DNA from: Promethearchaeota archaeon
GTDB taxonomy: Archaea; Asgardarchaeota; Lokiarchaeia; Sigyniarchaeales; SOKP01
Direction of reading: 5' to 3'
DNA length: 55,902 bases
Assembly: GCA_048938025.1 (NCBI GenBank)
Contig: JBHLMP010000016.1
Location: 3,428 to 59,329, forward strand
The stretch's first letter is position 1. Every line of letters begins with the position of its first letter. Below the pieces are notes generated by a model that was not told where the DNA came from, searched no databases, and saw only the letters and a list, made by a program, of their open reading frames with translations. Made by a program: the position numbers and the translations under genes. Shown here one piece after another: positions 1,779 to 46,061 of this stretch.

Positions 1779-2606
1779 TCATAAATCCAAATGTTCTTGT
1801 ATGAAATTCCAAATTAGATTGTTGACTCTTTCAGCATCCTCAATTAAGATGCTTCCATGTCCGAATCCTTCGAGGATGACTAATTTTGAGTTAGGAATTT
1901 TTTTATCCATAAGATGAGCGTCTTCTACAGGTATAAATTTATCCTCTGTACCATGTATTATTAACGTAGGTTGGGTAATTTTTTGTAAACTGTCGCGGGT
2001 ATCATGCTTTTGTAGCGCAGCTCCCCGATTTTCTAGATTTTGCCAGGTTGCATTACTCGCGCTTTTTATCATCAAGGTATCGAAAAGCGCATTACGAAGC
2101 ACTTCCTCCTCATTTACCCTTTGAATAAACGATTCTGAAAACATTAAATCAAGTTTTCTTTTGAATCCTTCTTCTAAATCTAGATCCTGCATTATTGTCC
2201 TGTATTCCTCGTTTATGGGCTGAACAAATTCTTCTCTTAAATACGGGGTAGTAGCGAGTAAAATTAAGGTTTTAACCCTATCAGGGTATTTTAAAACAAA
2301 ATTTTGAGCAATCATTCCTCCCATGCTGATACCGCATAGATGAATCTTTTGCTGGATACCTAGAGAGTCAATTAATGCTTTAGTTTCATCCACAAACATA
2401 TCCATCTTGTAAGGATAATTTGGTCTTGAACTTCCTCCGATTCCTCTATTATCCAATGCTATAACCATCATATCTTTCCTAAAAAATGGGATTTGAAATG
2501 CCCATCCATCGAGAGTAGTTGCCCAGCCTTGAATTAATACAAGTGGCTCCCCTTTACCTTTCTTCACATAATTGATTTCGATATCATCATAATTGAAAAT
2601 TGGGAT
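1779..2606 (-). CDS. alpha/beta hydrolase fold protein
   Basis: GISMGG nucleophile elbow, DNRGIG, IIHGTED and GFGH motifs. The frame extends 13 codons above the GTG at 2567 to an ATC at 2606 (IPIFNYDDIEINY), preceded by GGTGA. Confidence 0.85.
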   Translation of the reverse strand: MPIFNYDDIEINYVKKGKGEPLVLIQGWATTLDGWAFQIPFFRKDMMVIALDNRGIGGSSRPNYPYKMDMFVDETKALIDSLGIQQKIHLCGISMGGMIAQNFVLKYPDRVKTLILLATTPYLREEFVQPINEEYRTIMQDLDLEEGFKRKLDLMFSESFIQRVNEEEVLRNALFDTLMIKSASNATWQNLENRGAALQKHDTRDSLQKITQPTLIIHGTEDKFIPVEDAHLMDKKIPNSKLVILEGFGHGSILIEDAERVNNLIWNFIQEHLDL

Positions 2607-2950
2607 TTATATCACCTTTGTTATAGAATCTTCCATCACTTAATAATAAAATAATAATTATAACTAAATATCATTAGGAAGTATAAAAATTTTGGTAAAG
2701 CTTTTACATAAGGTATTTGAGATGTCCACTTTTTTTAATTATTATTTTAGTTAAATAAAGAGAAAGTTAATCGGATTAGAGTTTTGTAGAATTTAAAATA
2801 TTAATATCAAATTATGATAAGGATCAGCCAAGATACTAATCAAAAGTAAGGAAAATAATATGTGAAAGAGGCAGAAAACTATTTATAGAAGGTTAAATTT
2901 ACCATTAAAAAATCAATTATTTCTAAACCAATTAGGAGTGTAAAAAAAAA

Positions 2951-9038: not shown

Positions 9039-12017
9039 TTATTTCTCTTTTGACTGTTCCATTAGTGATTTAATTTCTGAAAGGTATTTATCAACATCAT
9101 ATTCGTAACATTTTGTATCTGTAGGATACAATTTCTCTGCCATTTTTTTCGCTTTTTCATAAATTTCAAGTGCTTTATCATAATTTCCGAGTTCTTGATA
9201 ACATTTTCCCATTTTTATATATGACCAATATGCAAACCATCCTGTTGGTTGAACTTCTATAGCCTTTTTATATTTCTTTATCGCATCTTCGTATTCTTTA
9301 AAAGTCATCATAATTTCACCATAAGTATCATAAGAATTTCCTAATTTTGGGTTAAGACTTAAAAGATATTCAGCAGTTTCTATCGCTTCCTCTTTTCTAT
9401 TTAGATAAGCTAAAGTAATAGCTTTATTATTTACAAAACCAATATCATCAGGGTAAAGTTCAGTTAATTCTTCTGAAATCCTATAAGCCTCTTGGTATTG
9501 TTTTTCTTCGAAATAAATATATGTTTTTACTAATAGTAATCTCTTCTTTAATAGTGGATCCTTATCTATGCATTCATCAATTGCTTCTAATGCTTCGAAT
9601 AGTTTTTTAGCACCTATCAGAAACATCACCTTTATAAGGTAATAGTTATATTGATTAGGGATTATGTTAATAGCACGATCGATAGCTTCGATAGCATCAT
9701 CATATTGCCCAATTCCCTGTAAAACATATGCTTGTAATAAACGAAATTTTGTTTTATTATAATTTATTTCTTCAAGTGCAATTGCACGTTCAATTAACCC
9801 AATAAAAGTATCAACATTTGGCTCATGTAGCTTAAATTTATAAATCAAATTATAACCTAATACTAATGCTTTGGTGAGATATGAGATTGGATGATTCGGA
9901 TATTGATCCATAATATTTTTTACAATTCCTAAAGCTTTTTCAAACTTTCCGCGAGCAATGTAGGAATATGTCAAAACGAATAAACCAGCGGTGTCAATTC
10001 TAGGATTCTTTTTGATGTAATTAAAAATAATTTCATCTGTTAGAACTCTTTTTGCTTCTTTGTAATTATGAATGATACAATAGTAAATACTTTTTAAAAT
10101 TATAAGTTCCTTATCTTTTGGTTTCAGTTTTATAGCAGAATTGATAATTTCTAGGGGATCTTCAGAAGTTCTTTCAAGAATCATACAATCTTTTAGATAA
10201 ACTATAAATTTTATCTGTAATAATGGAATACTGTTAGGATAATTAGAAATTATCTCATCGATAATCTTTAAAGCTTTCTCAGCCACATTTGTCTTAATTA
10301 ATAATTGAGCTTTTTGAACCTCTAGTAGAAAACATGGAGCTTTTTCTAAACCTTCTTCAATAATATCAAGGGCTTCTTCATACTTACCAATAAGAAAGTA
10401 AGTTATTGATTGCAACAAATATCCGATATACTTTTCAGGAAATTTTTTAATAATTTCTGTTGTTGTTTTAATTGAATCATCAAAATTATTATTAGTAGTG
10501 AGTACTAAATCTTTTAAAATAAGAGCCTCAATTTTATTAAAGTTGATATTACTACTCTCTAATGTCTTTTTAGCATCTATAATTTTCCCTTTATATAAGG
10601 AATTTTCAATTTTATCGAAAATATCTAATTTATTAAGATTAAAACCTTCCTTAAACTCACTTGTATTAATTAATTTCAATTTAGTGATATAGAAGATATC
10701 TAATACATCAAATATCTTGTCATCCAAAGTATAATAAGTTTGTATATCTTCACCATCTCCCACTTGTCTACTAACAGGTTCAAATGTTTGAAACTCTTCA
10801 AAAATATTCTGCCATACAAAACCCTCCAATTTTGCTTCACTGTCAACTAAGCTTTTCTCAGTTCCGATTTTATAAGCTAAATATTTAATATACTCCGGTA
10901 AAAACGCCTTTAATGCCGGTTTTAAATTATTATTGAATAAATTATCACAAACATCACTCAGGATATTCTCTAACAACAATTCTAAATCTATTACATGATC
11001 AGTTTGTAGAGCACTTTCTTTGAACTTATTAAGATAAGTGATTTTTGTGATATATTTCTCAATGGTTGCATTCAAAATTTTCTCAGTTGCCTCATTTTTC
11101 TGGAAGTAATACAACCCTCCCTGCTCATCCTTTAACGTGAAAAATTTTATTTGAAATAATTGATTATCTACAATTTCTTGGATATAATAGTTTAGTGTCG
11201 TAAGATCAATACCGTATTTTAAAGAAAACTCATCAGGTGATAAGTAATCAGGATACTGATTTGGATGATTTATCGAGAGAAATAATAGAATTTTGTTAAA
11301 ATCCTCTTCACTTTTTAACATATTTTCGACTTTTGAGTAATTAAGCTTTAGAACATGATTAAGAAACCGATATTTTAATTCATCATCCTCAATCTTATAT
11401 TTATCAAAAAATTTACTTGTCTTTTCTGTAATCTCTTCGATTCTCTTACTTTCTTCTTCTAAAATCGATTGACGATCCAAATCATATAATTTCAAAATCC
11501 TAAGATATTCCACCTTTCCCAGAGGGCTAATAATATATTCTTTATTATCTCTTGATACAAAACCATTATCTATTAATGAATTCAAATTATTAGATAAAGA
11601 TGATTGATTAATTGAAAGTGGTTCGTGCTTAAAATCAGACCATTTACAAGAATAATTATTACTTAACATCCATAAAATCCAATGATCATAATTTCTCCTC
11701 TTCATGATCACTTTTGGGGGATATTTCAATCTTCTTTTTCCTGACTTTTTATCGTAAGATAATTCGCTAATTCTTTCTCTTCCTGCAGATGTAATTTGAT
11801 ATTTACCTTTTTCTGGTTTTTCAATGTAACCTTTATTCTTTAGTTTCTTTAAATGCCCCGATAAAGTTGATTCTCTTATTTCTGCTGTAAAATCTGACCA
11901 TTCACATAGATCATTGTTATTTAACATCCATAAAATGACATATTCGTAATCTCTTTTTCCCATTATTGGATTTAAAATTTCACTAGGTGGATATATTATT
12001 TCTTCTGATCTACTCAT
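9039..12017 (-). CDS. tandem winged-helix + TPR repeat protein (putative regulator)
   Basis: Two repeated units Y(P)P..DY..ILWML.NN..C.WSDF..STLS..L..L...G(Y/F), a third wHTH-like segment, then about 500 aa of TPRs. ATG at 12017 (TTG alternative at 12029). Confidence 0.8.
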   Translation of the reverse strand: MSRSEEIIYPPSEILNPIMGKRDYEYVILWMLNNNDLCEWSDFTAEIRESTLSGHLKKLKNKGYIEKPEKGKYQITSAGRERISELSYDKKSGKRRLKYPPKVIMKRRNYDHWILWMLSNNYSCKWSDFKHEPLSINQSSLSNNLNSLIDNGFVSRDNKEYIISPLGKVEYLRILKLYDLDRQSILEEESKRIEEITEKTSKFFDKYKIEDDELKYRFLNHVLKLNYSKVENMLKSEEDFNKILLFLSINHPNQYPDYLSPDEFSLKYGIDLTTLNYYIQEIVDNQLFQIKFFTLKDEQGGLYYFQKNEATEKILNATIEKYITKITYLNKFKESALQTDHVIDLELLLENILSDVCDNLFNNNLKPALKAFLPEYIKYLAYKIGTEKSLVDSEAKLEGFVWQNIFEEFQTFEPVSRQVGDGEDIQTYYTLDDKIFDVLDIFYITKLKLINTSEFKEGFNLNKLDIFDKIENSLYKGKIIDAKKTLESSNINFNKIEALILKDLVLTTNNNFDDSIKTTTEIIKKFPEKYIGYLLQSITYFLIGKYEEALDIIEEGLEKAPCFLLEVQKAQLLIKTNVAEKALKIIDEIISNYPNSIPLLQIKFIVYLKDCMILERTSEDPLEIINSAIKLKPKDKELIILKSIYYCIIHNYKEAKRVLTDEIIFNYIKKNPRIDTAGLFVLTYSYIARGKFEKALGIVKNIMDQYPNHPISYLTKALVLGYNLIYKFKLHEPNVDTFIGLIERAIALEEINYNKTKFRLLQAYVLQGIGQYDDAIEAIDRAINIIPNQYNYYLIKVMFLIGAKKLFEALEAIDECIDKDPLLKKRLLLVKTYIYFEEKQYQEAYRISEELTELYPDDIGFVNNKAITLAYLNRKEEAIETAEYLLSLNPKLGNSYDTYGEIMMTFKEYEDAIKKYKKAIEVQPTGWFAYWSYIKMGKCYQELGNYDKALEIYEKAKKMAEKLYPTDTKCYEYDVDKYLSEIKSLMEQSKEK

Positions 12018-12802: not shown

Positions 12803-13696
12803 ATGGAAAATCAGCACCTAAAAGAGTTTGTAATATATAAAGGACAGAAAATTTTTGTAGAAGAGACTGGAGGAAAATTTTATTTAGATCTAAGATGTCG
12901 AAATATAGAAGATATTACTGAAATAGAAGGTCTAGCAGAACTAGAATATCTCGAAATTGTTTATTTAGACGGTAATAACATCACTGAAATAAAAGGGCTT
13001 AGTTCCCTTGTAAATTTGAAAGAATTAAATCTTGAAGGTAATCAAATTTCTGAAGTAAAGGGGCTTGATAAACTTCAAAATTTAAGAAGGTTAATGTTTG
13101 GGGGTAACCAAATCTCAGTAATCAAGGGTCTTGAAAAGTTAAAAAATTTGGAATATTTATTCTTTGCTATACCGACTGAGTCATTTGGTAATCAAATTAT
13201 TGATATTAAAGGATTAGATTACTTAAAGAATTTAAAGTTCTTAAATATAAGTAACAATAAGATCTCAGAAATCAAGGGTTTTGGCAATCTTACCAATCTA
13301 GAAACATTATACCTCCATTGTAATGAAATTTTTAAGATTCAAAATCTTGATAACCTCAAAAATTTAAAATATTTGTATCTTAGCAATAATAACATTGAAA
13401 AAATAGAAAACTTGCATGGATTAACTAATTTAAGAGTTTTAGATCTATCAAATAATAAAATTTCTGAGATCTCTGGACTTGAAAATCTCTCTAATCTTAG
13501 AAGTTTAGTCCTTGACAGCAACCAAATCAAAAATATAAAGGGGCTTCAAAATTTGCCAAATTTAGAGTATTTGTTTTTAAGATATAATCAGATTTCCAAA
13601 TTAGGAAAAATTGAGATACTAAAAAAATTAAATAGTGTCAGATTAGATGGCAATCCTATACTTGGAGAAGAATTGGTTAAATTAGGAGGGAAATGA
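12803..13696 (+). CDS. leucine-rich repeat protein (SDS22/internalin-like)
   Basis: About 11 copies of the 22-aa LxxLxLxxNxIxxIxGL repeat. Confidence 0.92.
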   Translation: MENQHLKEFVIYKGQKIFVEETGGKFYLDLRCRNIEDITEIEGLAELEYLEIVYLDGNNITEIKGLSSLVNLKELNLEGNQISEVKGLDKLQNLRRLMFGGNQISVIKGLEKLKNLEYLFFAIPTESFGNQIIDIKGLDYLKNLKFLNISNNKISEIKGFGNLTNLETLYLHCNEIFKIQNLDNLKNLKYLYLSNNNIEKIENLHGLTNLRVLDLSNNKISEISGLENLSNLRSLVLDSNQIKNIKGLQNLPNLEYLFLRYNQISKLGKIEILKKLNSVRLDGNPILGEELVKLGGK

Positions 13697-14644: not shown

Positions 14645-15003
14645 TTAATAATAACAATTCTTTAGTTAATAACATTTTATTCTCATCTATCTATATTTTT
14701 AATTTTAGATTTTATTAAAGATTTCAACAAGAATGTAAGATTATACCAACATAATTAAATTTTATAGAGATAAGAATACTCTTATATTAATTCATCTTTT
14801 CTCGATTTGATTACTTTTTAGGACATTAATTCACCCATTATATAGATACAAATTATCAATAAGAAGAGGTACCGAAAATTAAGTTATTTAAAACATTTTT
14901 GCATATAAATTGCTAAAATATAATTTTGTTATCATAGAACAAATTCCAGAAAACTACAAAATCTTAATAATATTGAGTCTATCTTTAAAATAAAAAAAAA
15001 TTT

Positions 15004-23691: not shown

Positions 23692-23797
23692 GCTAAACTT
23701 ATACTTTAATAAATAAATTTTTATACCCTATACTAATATAAACTTTTAAAAAAATAGTTTTTTAAGTTATTTTTTATCCCACTTTTGGTGTATAAAC

Positions 23798-25768
23798 ATA
23801 GATTATCAAACTTTTTTTCCTTACAGACAATTTAGAGAAGATCAAGAAAAAATTATTAAAGAAATCGAATTAAATTCAAAATCTAAAAAAAACATTTTAT
23901 TAGTTGCTCCCAATGGTACAGGTAAAACCATAATTGCTTTAAGTGGACTTCTTCCTTTAGCCTATGAGAAAAACTTAAAGATAATTTATACTTGTAGAAC
24001 ACACTCTCAAAATACAAGAATAATAAAAGAACTGAATAAGATCTCTCAATTTCTAACAAAAAATAATACAAAAGTAAAATTAAATGGTCTCTCCATTAGA
24101 GGAAGAAACGAGATGTGCTTAAATAAAACCTTGTTATCTTTAAAATTAAATCCAAGGGAATCTATGTCAGTATGTAATGATTTAAGAAAAAATGCTAATT
24201 GTCTTTATTTTTTAAATTTACTAAAAAAAAAGGATAGAGTGGATAACTCTTTATTATTAGCCCCAGATTTGTTCAATAAACCTGTTGATGCAGAAGATCT
24301 CATAAAATTCTGCAAGGATGAGAAGCTTTGTCCTTATTTTCTTAGTAAATTCCTCCTTAAAGAAATGAAAATTATCATATGCAATTATCAGTGGATTTTT
24401 AGCCCTTTTATTCAAGAATCTTTCTTAAAATTTATTGATCAAGAACTTCATAACTTTATTTTAGTCATTGATGAATGTCATAATTTAATTAACACAGCTA
24501 CAGAGGTAAATTCAGAAAAAATCTCACCTTATTCCTTAAGATTATGCTTAAAAGATTTAGAAATGTATAGATCACCCATTCTTATGCAAAGTTTTGTTAA
24601 AATTTTAATGGATCTATTAAAAATTAAAAAAGAATACTTTAAGGGTGAAGAAGAAGAAGTAAAACCAGATATTCTCTTAGAAGTAATATATAAAAAATTA
24701 GGATTTTGTGATTTAGTTGAATTTAAAAATTTTATAAAAGATCTTTATGAGTTCAGTATTTCGATTCATGAAGAGAAAATAGCAAACGGTGACATTTCAA
24801 GAGACTTTGTTGGATCTTTGGCAGAATTTTGGCTAAAGTGGTTAAAAACCTATCTCTTAGATAGTTATTTTTTTTGTTATAATTTAAAGGAGAAGAAGGG
24901 TAAAAGATCAATATCGCTTGAAATTGTGGCGTTAGATCCAAGAGAGATTACTATACCAATCCTAAAAAATGTATATACTTGTTTAAACCTATCTGGGACA
25001 GCTAACCCTTATGTGTATAACTATTTAATCGGGTTAAATGAGAGCGGAAAAAGTTATAAAGGAATCATAGCAGATTCCCCTTTTAAAAAAGAAAATATTA
25101 AAGCATTTATCATAGAAGGGGTTAATACTAAAAATAATAATAGAAATCCAGCTATGTTTAAGAAGTTGAATGAAAAAATAGATGAGGTTCTATATTGCAC
25201 TCCAGCAAATTCAGGGATTTTTTGTGCTTCCTACAAAATTTTAAAAGGTTTAGTTTCAAATGGATTAGAATTAATAGTAAAAAAGAACAATAAAAAGCTA
25301 TTTTTAGAAGAATCAGGTTTATCTGCATCAGAAAATGCTAGTATGGTTGAAGATTTTAAATCTATGTCCCAACCACCTAATAATGGTGCTGTATTAGTAG
25401 GTGTTTGTGGTGGTAGAAATTCTGAAGGAGAAGATTATCCTGGAGATTTTATGAATTCTGTTGTAATCGCAGGATTCCCTTATCACTTGCCAACTCCACG
25501 GGTAGAAGCGAAAATTGGATACTATGATAAAGTCTTTAATAAACAAGGATGGAATTTTGCTTACCTCTATCCTGCGATTCAAAGGGCTAATCAAGCTTCA
25601 GGACGTCCAATAAGAAGACTATCTGATAAAGGAAGCTTAATTTTTATGGATAACAGATTTAAAAGCAAATATCAATGGATCTCTGAATGGGTAAAGAAAG
25701 AATTAGAATTAGTTCCAGATAAAAAAAATGCAATCATTCAGAGATTATATCCTTTTTGGAATTCATAG
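23798..25768 (+). CDS. XPD/Rad3-family Fe-S DNA helicase
   Basis: Frame is open 105 codons above the tracked ATG (24113) and encodes the Q-motif FPY..FR.DQ, Walker A APNGTGKT and RTHSQ. Downstream: Fe-S cysteines, DECH, SEGEDYPG, QASGRPIR. Confidence 0.9.
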   Translation: MDYQTFFPYRQFREDQEKIIKEIELNSKSKKNILLVAPNGTGKTIIALSGLLPLAYEKNLKIIYTCRTHSQNTRIIKELNKISQFLTKNNTKVKLNGLSIRGRNEMCLNKTLLSLKLNPRESMSVCNDLRKNANCLYFLNLLKKKDRVDNSLLLAPDLFNKPVDAEDLIKFCKDEKLCPYFLSKFLLKEMKIIICNYQWIFSPFIQESFLKFIDQELHNFILVIDECHNLINTATEVNSEKISPYSLRLCLKDLEMYRSPILMQSFVKILMDLLKIKKEYFKGEEEEVKPDILLEVIYKKLGFCDLVEFKNFIKDLYEFSISIHEEKIANGDISRDFVGSLAEFWLKWLKTYLLDSYFFCYNLKEKKGKRSISLEIVALDPREITIPILKNVYTCLNLSGTANPYVYNYLIGLNESGKSYKGIIADSPFKKENIKAFIIEGVNTKNNNRNPAMFKKLNEKIDEVLYCTPANSGIFCASYKILKGLVSNGLELIVKKNNKKLFLEESGLSASENASMVEDFKSMSQPPNNGAVLVGVCGGRNSEGEDYPGDFMNSVVIAGFPYHLPTPRVEAKIGYYDKVFNKQGWNFAYLYPAIQRANQASGRPIRRLSDKGSLIFMDNRFKSKYQWISEWVKKELELVPDKKNAIIQRLYPFWNS

Positions 25769-34781: not shown

Positions 34782-35429
34782 TTAGCTTTGTAATTCTTTG
34801 CGTAGTTTATCGATCTCATCCTTAAGCTTTTCTTTTGATTTCATTTCTTCTTCTTCAAGTTCTTCGTATTCAGGAATATATTGTAAATCATCTGCGGGAA
34901 CTTTTGGCATAGTACCTCCTTGATCAAGGAGCATTTCCGTTTCCAATTGATTTAATTCTTCTGTAACATCAATTGCAAGATCTATCTCAGGATCTCCTGC
35001 TAAAATATCTGCTGCTTCTTCAATTTCTGATACATATGCTTCAGAATCTTCTGCAATTTCAGCAACTTTAGCGGGGGAAGCTTTAGTGGCAATATATTCC
35101 AACTCATCTCTTATCCCTCCAAATATATCACCAGTTTGCGATATTAAAACACCCTCTTCTATTGCTTGAATTTGTCTTTCGATTTTTGCTCTAATATTAT
35201 TGGATCTATCAACCTTGGTTTGATAAGCCTTGTATTGAATAAGATAATTCTTCGCACGATCTTTCTCTCCTCGCTTCAATGCAATTTTGGCATTTTTACG
35301 ACTAATCTCAGCACGTCGGCTATAATTTTTATTCATTACATTCAATCTGTGAATATGACCTTTTGCTTTAGAGACTAAATCATCTTTTTCTTTACTTTTC
35401 CGGGGGAATAATTTTTTCTTGAGTCCTAT
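34782..35429 (-). CDS. ESCRT-III (Snf7 family) protein
   Basis: Basic N-half (AKIALKRGEKDRAKNYL) and acidic C-half, ELNQLE, MIM2-like MPKVP, terminal amphipathic helix. N-terminus extends to ATA at 35429 ((M)GLKKKLFPRK). Confidence 0.8.
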   Translation of the reverse strand: MGLKKKLFPRKSKEKDDLVSKAKGHIHRLNVMNKNYSRRAEISRKNAKIALKRGEKDRAKNYLIQYKAYQTKVDRSNNIRAKIERQIQAIEEGVLISQTGDIFGGIRDELEYIATKASPAKVAEIAEDSEAYVSEIEEAADILAGDPEIDLAIDVTEELNQLETEMLLDQGGTMPKVPADDLQYIPEYEELEEEEMKSKEKLKDEIDKLRKELQS

Positions 35430-35580
35430 AAGCGTCTCATCTCCATTTAAAAGTTTATTTTAATGTTATCTATTTTATGAAATATATGATTTTTCTAGCT
35501 TAAAAATTTAATATTATTTAATATATTATAATAAAAGAATTCTCATCAAAAAAGTTTTCATAGACCGATTTTGAAAAATT

Positions 35581-36696
35581 ATGAAAAAAATTATAATAAA
35601 TTTTGAAACAAGAAACAGCAATTTCAAAGAATTAGTTCAAGAAGCATTCAATAAAGATTTTCTAAATTTTTTTGTTACACAATCTACTTTTTCTGAATTC
35701 GAGGGAATCAAACGTATCAATTTATTTACAAAAGATCTTACAATACCCGTAAAATATACGATCTATGAAAATAAAGGAGAATTAGAAAAGAAATTAGTAG
35801 AAAAAGGAATTCCTGAAGAAAATATAGGTTATTATAAACAATTGAAATCAAAGGAAGATGAGCAGGAAGTAGTAGAACTCTCGAAAACAGGAAGAATTGA
35901 TCTGATTATTATTTCTGCAAAGAATTGGAAAATTATCCCAATTGAAAATCTTATTGCAGAAATGCATTCAAATGAAATAGAGCTGATTGCTGAAGTGGAA
36001 AATGTTGAAGAAGCTGAATTAATGTTAAAAACACTTGAAATTGGGGTTGATGGAGTTTTGATTAAACCTAATACACCAAATGATTTGGTTGATTTAAAAA
36101 AGTTATTATTTACTTCATTCAAAATTGATTTGACAAGAGCGAGAGTTATTAATATTAATAATATTCCAGAAAGCGATAGAGTATGTGTTGACACAACTTC
36201 AATCCTTAATTTAGGAGAGGGTTTTCTTGTGGGCTCAACCGCAACTGGCTTCTGCTTAATTCATTCAGAAACTATTGAATCTCAATTTGTAGCAATTAGA
36301 CCCTTTCGAGTGAATGCAGGTGATGTATCTGCGTACATTTTAGTACCTAATGATGATCCCGAGAAGATATATCGTACTAAATATCTGAGTGAATTGAAAG
36401 GTGGGGATAGAGTATTAGCAGTTAGCAGTAATGGTGATGTTAGAATTGTATCAGTAGGAAGAGTAAAAATTGAAACCCGCCCAATGTTGAGGTTTGAATT
36501 GGAGGCTTTTGAAGGGAATAAAAAAATAGTCCTTAGTTGTATATGTCAAAATGCTGAAACTATACGATTAGTCGATGTTAACGGGAAAGCTAAATCCGTT
36601 GTTGATATGAAAATAGGAGATGAAGTTTTAGTTCATATTGGACCTAAAGCAACGCATTTCGGTACACCTATAAAAGAAAAAATTATTGAAAAATAA
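35581..36696 (+). CDS. aroB': 3-dehydroquinate synthase II
   Basis: WKIIPIENLIA, DRVCVDT, RPFRVNAG, YLSELKGGD, GRVKIETRP, QNAETIRLV. Confidence 0.92.
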   Translation: MKKIIINFETRNSNFKELVQEAFNKDFLNFFVTQSTFSEFEGIKRINLFTKDLTIPVKYTIYENKGELEKKLVEKGIPEENIGYYKQLKSKEDEQEVVELSKTGRIDLIIISAKNWKIIPIENLIAEMHSNEIELIAEVENVEEAELMLKTLEIGVDGVLIKPNTPNDLVDLKKLLFTSFKIDLTRARVININNIPESDRVCVDTTSILNLGEGFLVGSTATGFCLIHSETIESQFVAIRPFRVNAGDVSAYILVPNDDPEKIYRTKYLSELKGGDRVLAVSSNGDVRIVSVGRVKIETRPMLRFELEAFEGNKKIVLSCICQNAETIRLVDVNGKAKSVVDMKIGDEVLVHIGPKATHFGTPIKEKIIEK

Positions 36697-45251: not shown

Positions 45252-45364
45252 AACTCCTTTTACAATAACTAATACATTTAAAATAAAAAAATAAATAAAC
45301 AATTATTCATAATTCTACTAAATTAATTGAGTAATTTTAACAATAATTATAAAGGTGAACCCTA

Positions 45365-45679
45365 ATCACAAAACACCATGGATATCGAAAAAAGTCTAGA
45401 CACAAACATAAGAAAAATGTTCGAAACAGAGGATTAGGATCAGTTGAAAAATACTTAATTGATTATAAGATTAACGATAAAGTTGATATAATAACTGATC
45501 CATCTGTTCATCGCCGTGGAATGCCACATTCCAGATTCCATGGACGTACTGGCACAATAACAGGACAAAGAGGGCGTTGTTATTTAGTCGAAGTAAAATT
45601 AGGGAAATCCTTGAAAACATTAATAATTGGAAGAGAACACTTAAGGTTAAATAGCGTTTCTATTAAAGCAAAAGAATAA
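45365..45679 (+). CDS. rpl21e: 50S ribosomal protein L21e (104 aa), not in ORF track
   Basis: (M)TKHHGYRKKSR...DKVDIITDPSVHRRGMPHSRFHGRTGTITGQRGRCY...EHL. Canonical position between pus10 and rpoF; apparent start ATC. Confidence 0.93.
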   Translation: MTKHHGYRKKSRHKHKKNVRNRGLGSVEKYLIDYKINDKVDIITDPSVHRRGMPHSRFHGRTGTITGQRGRCYLVEVKLGKSLKTLIIGREHLRLNSVSIKAKE

Positions 45680-45695
45680 GGATGAAGATGAAATA

Positions 45696-46061
45696 ATGTC
45701 TGGACGAAAAGTTGATGAAAAAATAGTTTCTATATCTGAAGTAAAAGATATTATGGAATATGTAAAAGAAAAGATATTAGAAGTTGATTCCGAAGAGGGG
45801 ATGTCACATTTTCAAGAAATAACTTATAATTACGTAAATAAATTTTCTAAAATACCAACAAAAATTGCGAATAAAATTATAAAATTTTTAGTAGATAAAT
45901 ATGATATTGAAGAAATTTACGCTATAAACGTTATAAATATTGATCCTAAATCTGTTCCAGAATTGCGGATGATTTTTGAAAAGTCTTATAACGGAAAAAC
46001 TTTAAATGATGATCAATTACAAGAGATTCTTTACCAGATCGAAGATATCAAAACATCATAA
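45696..46061 (+). CDS. rpoF: RNA polymerase subunit Rpo4 (F)
   Basis: YNYVNKFSK, AINVINIDP...ELR; conserved synteny. Confidence 0.85.
   Translation: MSGRKVDEKIVSISEVKDIMEYVKEKILEVDSEEGMSHFQEITYNYVNKFSKIPTKIANKIIKFLVDKYDIEEIYAINVINIDPKSVPELRMIFEKSYNGKTLNDDQLQEILYQIEDIKTS

Follow-up and report, generated by a model that had tools for sequence, protein, structure and literature searches.

Dozens of genes, including those for ribosomal proteins and aIF1, appear to begin at near-cognate start codons in a genus of Lokiarchaeia

The L21e gene and its start codon

The DNA analysed here (the window) is a 55,902-nucleotide stretch of contig JBHLMP010000016.1 in the Promethearchaeota archaeon assembly GCA_048938025.1, assigned to the order Sigyniarchaeales of the Lokiarchaeia. 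A gene for ribosomal protein L21e is located on its forward strand (45365–45679), with the start predicted from Pfam and orthologue alignment at ATC 45365–45367, and comprises 104 codons and the stop codon TAA (45677–45679). A Shine–Dalgarno (SD) box, GGTGA (45354–45358, forward strand), precedes the ATC with a spacer of 6 nt. The TGA contained in this box (45356–45358) is an in-frame stop codon, and four further in-frame TAA codons are found just upstream of the box. The first-pass annotation of the window had proposed that rpl21e has no canonical start codon, and this arrangement, with the ATC 6 nt downstream of the box and five stop codons before it, confirms the proposal. The earliest in-frame ATG, GTG or TTG is codon 52 when counted from the ATC; the first-pass annotation had given codon 53. 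The Ribosomal_L21e domain (PF01157) spans residues 2–95 of the ATC-initiated protein, corresponding to positions 2–98 of the 101-position profile.

Orthologues of the window genes were collected from 40 relatives. In 22 congeneric genomes, the codon aligned with the L21e start is ATA in 10, ATC in 5, ATT in 4, TTG in 2 and CTG in 1, and nearly all of these orthologues carry GGTG about 7 nt before the aligned codon. The same position is occupied by ATG (four genomes) or TTG (three genomes) in seven genomes of the sister family. Among 57 public records from Promethearchaeota, a set that overlaps in species with the relatives' set and from which two contig-edge loci were left out, the codons were ATA (17), ATC (7), ATT (8), CTG (4), TTG (11), GTG (2) and ATG (8). 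Of 21 non-Asgard records, 15 have ATG at the site itself and 5 have it one codon further upstream; the remaining record was unclear. Contigs from two other studies cover positions 45294–45944 with approximately 98.8% identity, showing eight differences; among those listed, none lies at 45365–45367, and the comparison is not counted as confirmation of the ATC.

Three other sites in the window

The arrangement of an SD box followed after 5–7 nt by ATA, ATC or ATT (collectively ATH; AUH in mRNA) had also been reported at positions 23798, 35429 and 2606. All three sites were upheld, except that the spacer at the second of these is 11 nt. The first site belongs to an XPD/Rad3-like helicase gene on the forward strand (23798–25768), for which Pfam and orthologue alignment predict a start at ATA 23798, 7 nt after the SD core GGTG (23787–23790, forward strand). 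From this ATA, it is 105 codons to the next canonical codon, whereas the ResIII domain is matched from residue 12 and the DEAD_2 domain at residues 64–245. Among 20 congeneric orthologues, the aligned codon is ATA in 17, ATT in 1, ATG in 1 and another codon in 1, the last of these having canonical codons upstream. At more distant helicase loci, canonical codons are present at or upstream of the aligned site.

The alpha/beta hydrolase gene on the reverse strand (1779–2606) has its predicted start, on the same two lines of evidence, at ATC 2606–2604, 5 nt after a GGTGA box (2612–2616, reverse strand). A TAA directly precedes the ATC, GTG at codon 13 is the first canonical codon to follow, and the Abhydrolase_1 domain covers residues 21–254. 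The 15 loci with at least 41% identity, a count that omits 15 more distant paralogues, have ATC (3), ATA (2), ATT (4) or ATG (6) at the aligned position. A mini-frame of 10 codons beginning with GTG ATG and ending in TAA (2607–2640, reverse strand) abuts the ATC; in close orthologues, it is reduced to the GTG of the SD box, one codon and the TAA.

The third gene, also on the reverse strand (34782–35429), encodes a Snf7/ESCRT-III protein with a start predicted in the same way at ATA 35429–35427. Its SD sequence GGAG (35441–35444, reverse strand) lies 11 nt before the ATA, which is equivalent to an aligned spacing of 8 on the full SD sequence. The next canonical codon is codon 28, and PF03357 covers residues 29–181. 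The 24 Snf7 loci compared within the genus have ATG (15), GTG (2), ATC (5) or ATA (2) at this position. Two codons before the ATA, the window has ACG (35433–35435, reverse strand), where the nearest relative has an in-frame ATG. A contig from another sample, likely of the source study, is identical to the window over 35042–35658. Judging from the aligned loci, the Snf7 start may have shifted recently. As far as these alignments indicate, ATH is interchangeable with ATG or GTG at a single predicted start position in all three genes.

Genome-wide relationship between start codons and SD spacing

The source assembly is a metagenome-assembled genome of 3.52 Mb in 88 contigs with a G+C content of 29.3%; no 16S rRNA was found in it. 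It was scanned for GGTG in front of frames that are open for at least 100 codons and have a stop codon at most 15 codons upstream, with no canonical codon in between. At spacings of 6–8 nt, the 271 codons comprised 102 ATG/GTG/TTG, 78 ATH, 3 CTG and 88 others, whereas the 424 codons at spacings of 12–21 nt comprised 23 canonical codons, 36 ATH, no CTG and 365 others.

A stricter test was based on 2941 non-overlapping ORFs of at least 100 codons and considered only codons located at least five codons before the first canonical codon, the criterion being an SD 4-mer at an aligned spacing of 6–8. ATH codons were preceded by such a 4-mer in 92 of 2192 cases (4.2%), compared with 176 of 12139 (1.45%) for the other codons that served as controls (odds ratio 2.98, p = 6e-15). 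The signal was present for each codon separately: ATT (46/1075, p = 2.5e-9), ATA (33/880, p = 4.5e-6), ATC (13/237, p = 7e-5) and also CTG (7/56, p = 1.9e-5). Ranked by enrichment, ATT, CTG, ATA and ATC were the top four among the 61 sense codons; GCA (p = 0.003) and CAA (p = 0.011) ranked next, and ACG was found with the 4-mer in 3 of 37 cases (p = 0.03). In six other spacing classes examined with the same SD words, the ATH frequency was 1.2–2.0%, equal to that of other codons, and no excess was observed. An expectation-maximization model of start sites with a free motif and 61 codon classes was also tried and was dropped, having collapsed onto A-rich coding sequence.

The ATH excess corresponds to about 60 genes, or 2.0% of the ORFs, and this number is a lower bound that leaves genes without an SD sequence and ATH codons near a canonical codon uncounted. 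The recurrence of ATH starts noted in the first-pass annotation therefore extends to the whole genome, although the frequency given there (four genes in about 60) somewhat exceeds the lower bound found here, about 2% of the 2941 ORFs. An SD word was found at 452 of 2940 first canonical codons (about 15%), a proportion that fits the rarity of SD boxes in Lokiarchaea described in passages of two published studies (PMC7531240, PMC12993045).

The geometry of the two kinds of start differs. When GGTG-led starts with spacings of 5–10 were compared, spacings of 9–10 accounted for 4 of 73 ATH starts versus 15 of 68 ATG starts (p = 0.006), whereas the length of the SD sequence was alike (mean 5.6 for ATH and 5.8 for ATG). 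ATH starts thus require a tighter SD geometry than ATG starts, and the trait is limited to genes led by an SD sequence within a narrow range of spacings. In the source assembly, ATH starts follow SD sequences that contain GGTG and are rare after GGAGG or GAGGT without GGTG, whereas ATG follows both.

Other genes with predicted near-cognate starts

Dozens of genes in this genus, including those for ribosomal proteins and aIF1, appear to begin at AUA, AUC, AUU or CUG. In the ATH- and CTG-initiated proteins, Pfam domains start at residues 2–13, far upstream of the first canonical codon. Such N-terminal domains were identified in the products of genes with an ATT start (L34e, a ThiF-family protein, a Ras-like GTPase, IscU and HpaB), an ATA start (aldehyde ferredoxin oxidoreductase, AOR) and a CTG start (GatB/E, a ferredoxin–ETF fusion and a hydrogenase small subunit). 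The apparent ATT start of the L34e gene behind an SD sequence is in contig C48 of the source assembly (12889–13155, reverse strand). The apparent CTG starts are those of the genes for GatB/E (C27, 30267–31727), the ferredoxin–ETF-alpha fusion (C88, 1858–3048) and the hydrogenase small subunit (C87, 27576–28331), all on the reverse strand. Two further genes on forward strands have an apparent ATT start behind an SD sequence: that for TFB (C14, 29692–30660), in which the zinc ribbon occupies residues 21–61 and the first canonical codon is codon 75, and that for L7Ae (C3, 6763–7131), in which the domain is matched from residue 27 (profile position 12) and the first canonical codon is codon 34. 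The Pfam test did not discriminate between possible starts for the hydrolase of the window, the hydrogenase large subunit, GpmA and PPAT.

aIF1, initiator tRNA and other initiation factors

The gene for aIF1 (SUI1), which lies outside the window (C24 of the source assembly, 2575–2913, reverse strand), has a predicted ATT start; a canonical codon first appears in frame at codon 43, after the part that encodes the zinc knuckle. Every one of the 22 genomes of the genus with a readable locus has ATT at the aligned start; one further locus is N-masked. In these genomes, a conserved 20-nt block precedes the ATT, a stop codon lies one to three codons upstream of it, and canonical codons are absent upstream. 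A TATA-like run is located approximately 25 nt upstream, and the mRNA may therefore be nearly leaderless. In seven genomes of other genera in the order, the aIF1 start was TTG or GTG in four, ATA in two and ambiguous in one, with ATG in none.

The encoded protein aligns with the solved Methanocaldococcus jannaschii factor (E = 8e-25). Residues important in aIF1 of Pyrococcus abyssi are given in a published work, according to which Sulfolobus aIF1 promotes discrimination against start codons other than the canonical ones (PMC6237735). In the protein comparison, loop 1 was as basic as in other archaea and contained no genus-specific change.

An initiator tRNA gene was found by its similarity to the sister-family gene (C55 of the source assembly, about 10639–10780, forward strand). 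The A1:U72 pair, the three G–C pairs of the anticodon stem and the anticodon CAT were all retained in the source genome and three congeners. In these four genomes, the gene contains an intron after position 37, because of which simple anticodon-arm patterns had missed it; a second intron, in the T arm, is present only in the source genome. The sister-family gene has an insert in the D region instead. ARAGORN predicted 14–32 tRNAs without an initiator, including a tRNA-Ile with anticodon TAT, and Rfam gave 25 tRNA matches, the tRNA set of the assembly being incomplete. Inspection of the initiator tRNA and aIF1 for substitutions had been suggested in advance as a check; neither the tRNA nor loop 1 of aIF1 displays an obvious change, and thus nothing seen in them accounts for relaxed stringency.

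The genes for aIF1A, aIF2-alpha and aIF2-beta start at ATG. In the aIF2-gamma gene (C39 of the source assembly, about 14876–14918; L378), the P-loop is split between GHVDHG and KTTL by a frame-shifting 29-nt insert, which may represent either a short mRNA intron or an error of assembly. The open frame of this gene is 403 codons in the source genome, 400 in G001 and G003, and 515–549 in the other 21 genus genomes with a full-length match.

Distribution among related lineages

The ATH excess was 3.0 and 1.5% of ORFs in 400-kb samples from two other genomes of the genus (G006 and G023, respectively). In the sister family, it was 0.3% in an 800-kb sample (G032) and 0.9% in a 400-kb sample (G038), neither being significant, and the contrast with this family rests on samples of these sizes; a few convincing single cases of an ATH start were nevertheless found there. 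A 400-kb sample from a third family with 53% G+C (G033) gave –0.3%. The expectation that ATH starts would be more frequent here than in other archaea is consistent with these values, 1.5–3.0% in three genomes of the genus against 0.3, 0.9 and –0.3% elsewhere. Near-cognate initiation would accordingly be a quantitative trait that is strongest in this genus, as judged from small samples.

Near-cognate initiation and alternative explanations

Because the ATH and CTG codons occupy orthologous start positions, follow a well-spaced SD sequence and provide the only way to encode the N-terminal domains, we infer that initiation takes place at near-cognate codons. The genus very probably uses AUA, AUC, AUU and, more rarely, CUG as genuine start codons of SD-led genes. 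The simplest objection, namely that the true codon is ATG and has been lost by sequencing or assembly error, draws on the nature of the source, a metagenome-assembled genome of 88 contigs. However, all four window sites align with the starts of their orthologues, so that the sister genomes do not point to such an error: 19 of 22 independent congeners have a codon of this class at the L21e site, as do 18 of 20 at the helicase site, and the Snf7 site is covered by the identical contig from another sample. The probability of this explanation is negligible. Translation might instead begin at the next downstream ATG, GTG or TTG, as gene finders call it, with the conserved upstream residues remaining untranslated. 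Such a start is conceivable for GpmA and PPAT, where it would be codon 4 and codon 6, respectively, and for the hydrolase, with its GTG codon 13. L21e, however, would lose half of its length, the helicase its Walker A region, TFB its zinc ribbon, aIF1 its zinc knuckle and the GTPases their first strand. Conservation of the upstream residues at the protein level and the lack of an SD sequence before the internal codons also speak against a downstream start, which is highly unlikely as a general explanation.

Two other alternatives accept the position of the start and differ in how it is read or reached. If AUH were decoded by an isoleucine tRNA or by a second initiator, the proteins would carry N-terminal Ile rather than Met, and the use of ATA, ATC and ATT roughly in proportion to their abundance would be in line with this. 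CUG would then require yet another tRNA, whereas the enrichment of CTG together with TTG and GTG fits a single tRNA that tolerates one mismatch; among the tRNAs found (25 Rfam matches from an incomplete set), one is initiator-like and has a standard anticodon arm. We regard initiation by another tRNA as very unlikely, although a second initiator may be missing from this set. Termination–reinitiation, in which a ribosome stops in or near the SD sequence and restarts at the next codon without AUG, is suggested by the TGA of GGTGA, which falls in frame at a spacing of 6, and by the 10-codon mini-frame that ends in TAA just before the hydrolase ATC. This process is extremely unlikely to explain the trait: L21e has five in-frame stop codons upstream and no upstream frame to be translated, starts within 20 nt of an upstream ORF on the same strand are less common for ATH (15/84) than for ATG (27/73), and ATG and TTG starts have the same geometry.

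For near-cognate initiation by the initiator tRNA, the following mechanism can be proposed. The SD duplex would set the near-cognate codon in the P site within a narrow working window, 6–8 nt after GGTG or 6–7 nt after GGTGA. Decoding would presumably fall to the ordinary initiator tRNA (anticodon CAU), which would tolerate a mismatch in the third or the first position of the codon; the proteins would thus start with Met, and initiation would be efficient enough for ribosomal proteins. Proofreading by aIF1 would be set low in this lineage, a state that may arise via the AUU start of the aIF1 gene itself. The earlier suggestion of relaxed start selection with SD-guided initiation is supported by the orthologous starts and by the restriction of the excess to SD spacings of 6–8; its narrower form, relaxation at the third codon position, agrees with the use of ATH, whereas the use of CUG shows that not only the third position is affected.

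One tentative extension, by analogy with bacterial infC, is a convergent circuit in which the conserved AUU start sets aIF1 at a level that accepts AUU, AUA, AUC and CUG, while AT mutation pressure makes the AUG codons of core genes drift. The core genes that would have drifted from AUG to near-cognate codons in such a circuit are those for L21e, L34e, L7Ae, TFB, ESCRT-III and XPD. We consider this circuit possible, although rather unlikely.

Effects on gene annotation

Traces of these starts are present in protein databases. Five clusters of L21e fragments of 50–52 residues, derived from JGI and Logan sources, were found in a large protein collection; they begin at the internal Met of MPHSRFHG and are 81–88% identical to the window protein. 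An 85-residue form that starts at an internal GTG also exists. Four NCBI entries for L21e (loci L050, L037, L047 and L048) begin with M at an ATH codon, which is the aligned codon in one case and lies 1, 2 and 14 codons upstream of it in the others. The NCBI pipeline thus already accepts ATH starts but places them inconsistently. It had been anticipated that many genes would be missed or truncated in annotations; truncated L21e is indeed held in Prodigal-type databases, whereas NCBI calls some of the ATH starts. Many Asgard ribosomal protein genes are described as 'partial' or 'hypothetical' in a section of one study, where assembly is blamed (PMC10833476). Gene finders restricted to ATG, GTG and TTG truncate or lose genes with near-cognate starts, with distorting effects on catalogues of Asgard proteins, on comparisons of N-termini and on calls of gene presence or absence.

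Comparison with known systems and significance

In animal mitochondria, AUA, AUU and AUC serve as initiation codons on leaderless mRNAs, a single tRNA-Met with a modified C34 functions in both initiation and elongation, and AUA is read as Met. The genus resembles them in using all three AUH codons as starts in an AT-rich genome; it differs in having SD-dependent starts and a separate initiator tRNA with a standard arm, as far as the gene indicates (modifications are not visible in sequence). Eukaryotes initiate at near-cognate codons such as CUG, GUG, UUG, ACG and AUU, among others. The likeness here is that codons with one mismatch would be read by the initiator tRNA and that stringency in eukaryotes is set by eIF1, the homologue of aIF1; the AUU start of the aIF1 gene can also be compared with the poor-context AUG of the gene for eIF1 itself. 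However, initiation in the genus involves neither scanning nor a Kozak context, there is no clear use of codons that deviate at the second position (ACG, 3/37), and the near-cognate codon would determine the main proteoform and not an extension or an upstream ORF.

According to statements in reviews, archaeal starts are AUG, GUG or UUG, with aIF1 guarding fidelity (PMC4705826, PMC7531240). The rare starts of translation table 11 (ATT, ATC, ATA and CTG) are likewise near-cognate codons that follow an SD sequence and align with the Met of orthologues. Elsewhere, they are isolated exceptions: in 36 prokaryote groups with 61,358 ancestral AUG starts, there were 363 switches to GUG, 113 to UUG, 2 to CUG and 1 to AUU (PMC5622118). 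In contrast, near-cognate starts in this genus account for about 2% of ORFs, with 78 ATH against 102 canonical codons among GGTG-led starts, and they include genes for ribosomal proteins, TFB and aIF1. The bacterial infC gene has an AUU start through which IF3 is autoregulated, as outlined in one of these reviews (PMC4705826), and the conserved ATT of the aIF1 gene in the genus is similar in that the gene for a proofreading factor itself has an AUU start. The factor is, however, aIF1, which has the SUI1 fold, and not IF3, feedback is only proposed here, and the infC loop of Escherichia coli does not bring about genome-wide use of AUU.

A literature search of article passages found no description of AUH or CUG starts as a trait of Loki-type archaea or of non-AUG aIF1 genes. 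Near-cognate starts as such, the rare starts of table 11 and the infC loop are already known. What appears to be new is the frequent, SD-spacing-dependent use of near-cognate starts across an archaeal genus, their occurrence in genes for ribosomal proteins, TFB, ESCRT-III and XPD, and the conserved AUU start of aIF1. The genus would thereby be a natural system in which to study the control of start-codon stringency and its evolution towards the eukaryotic state.
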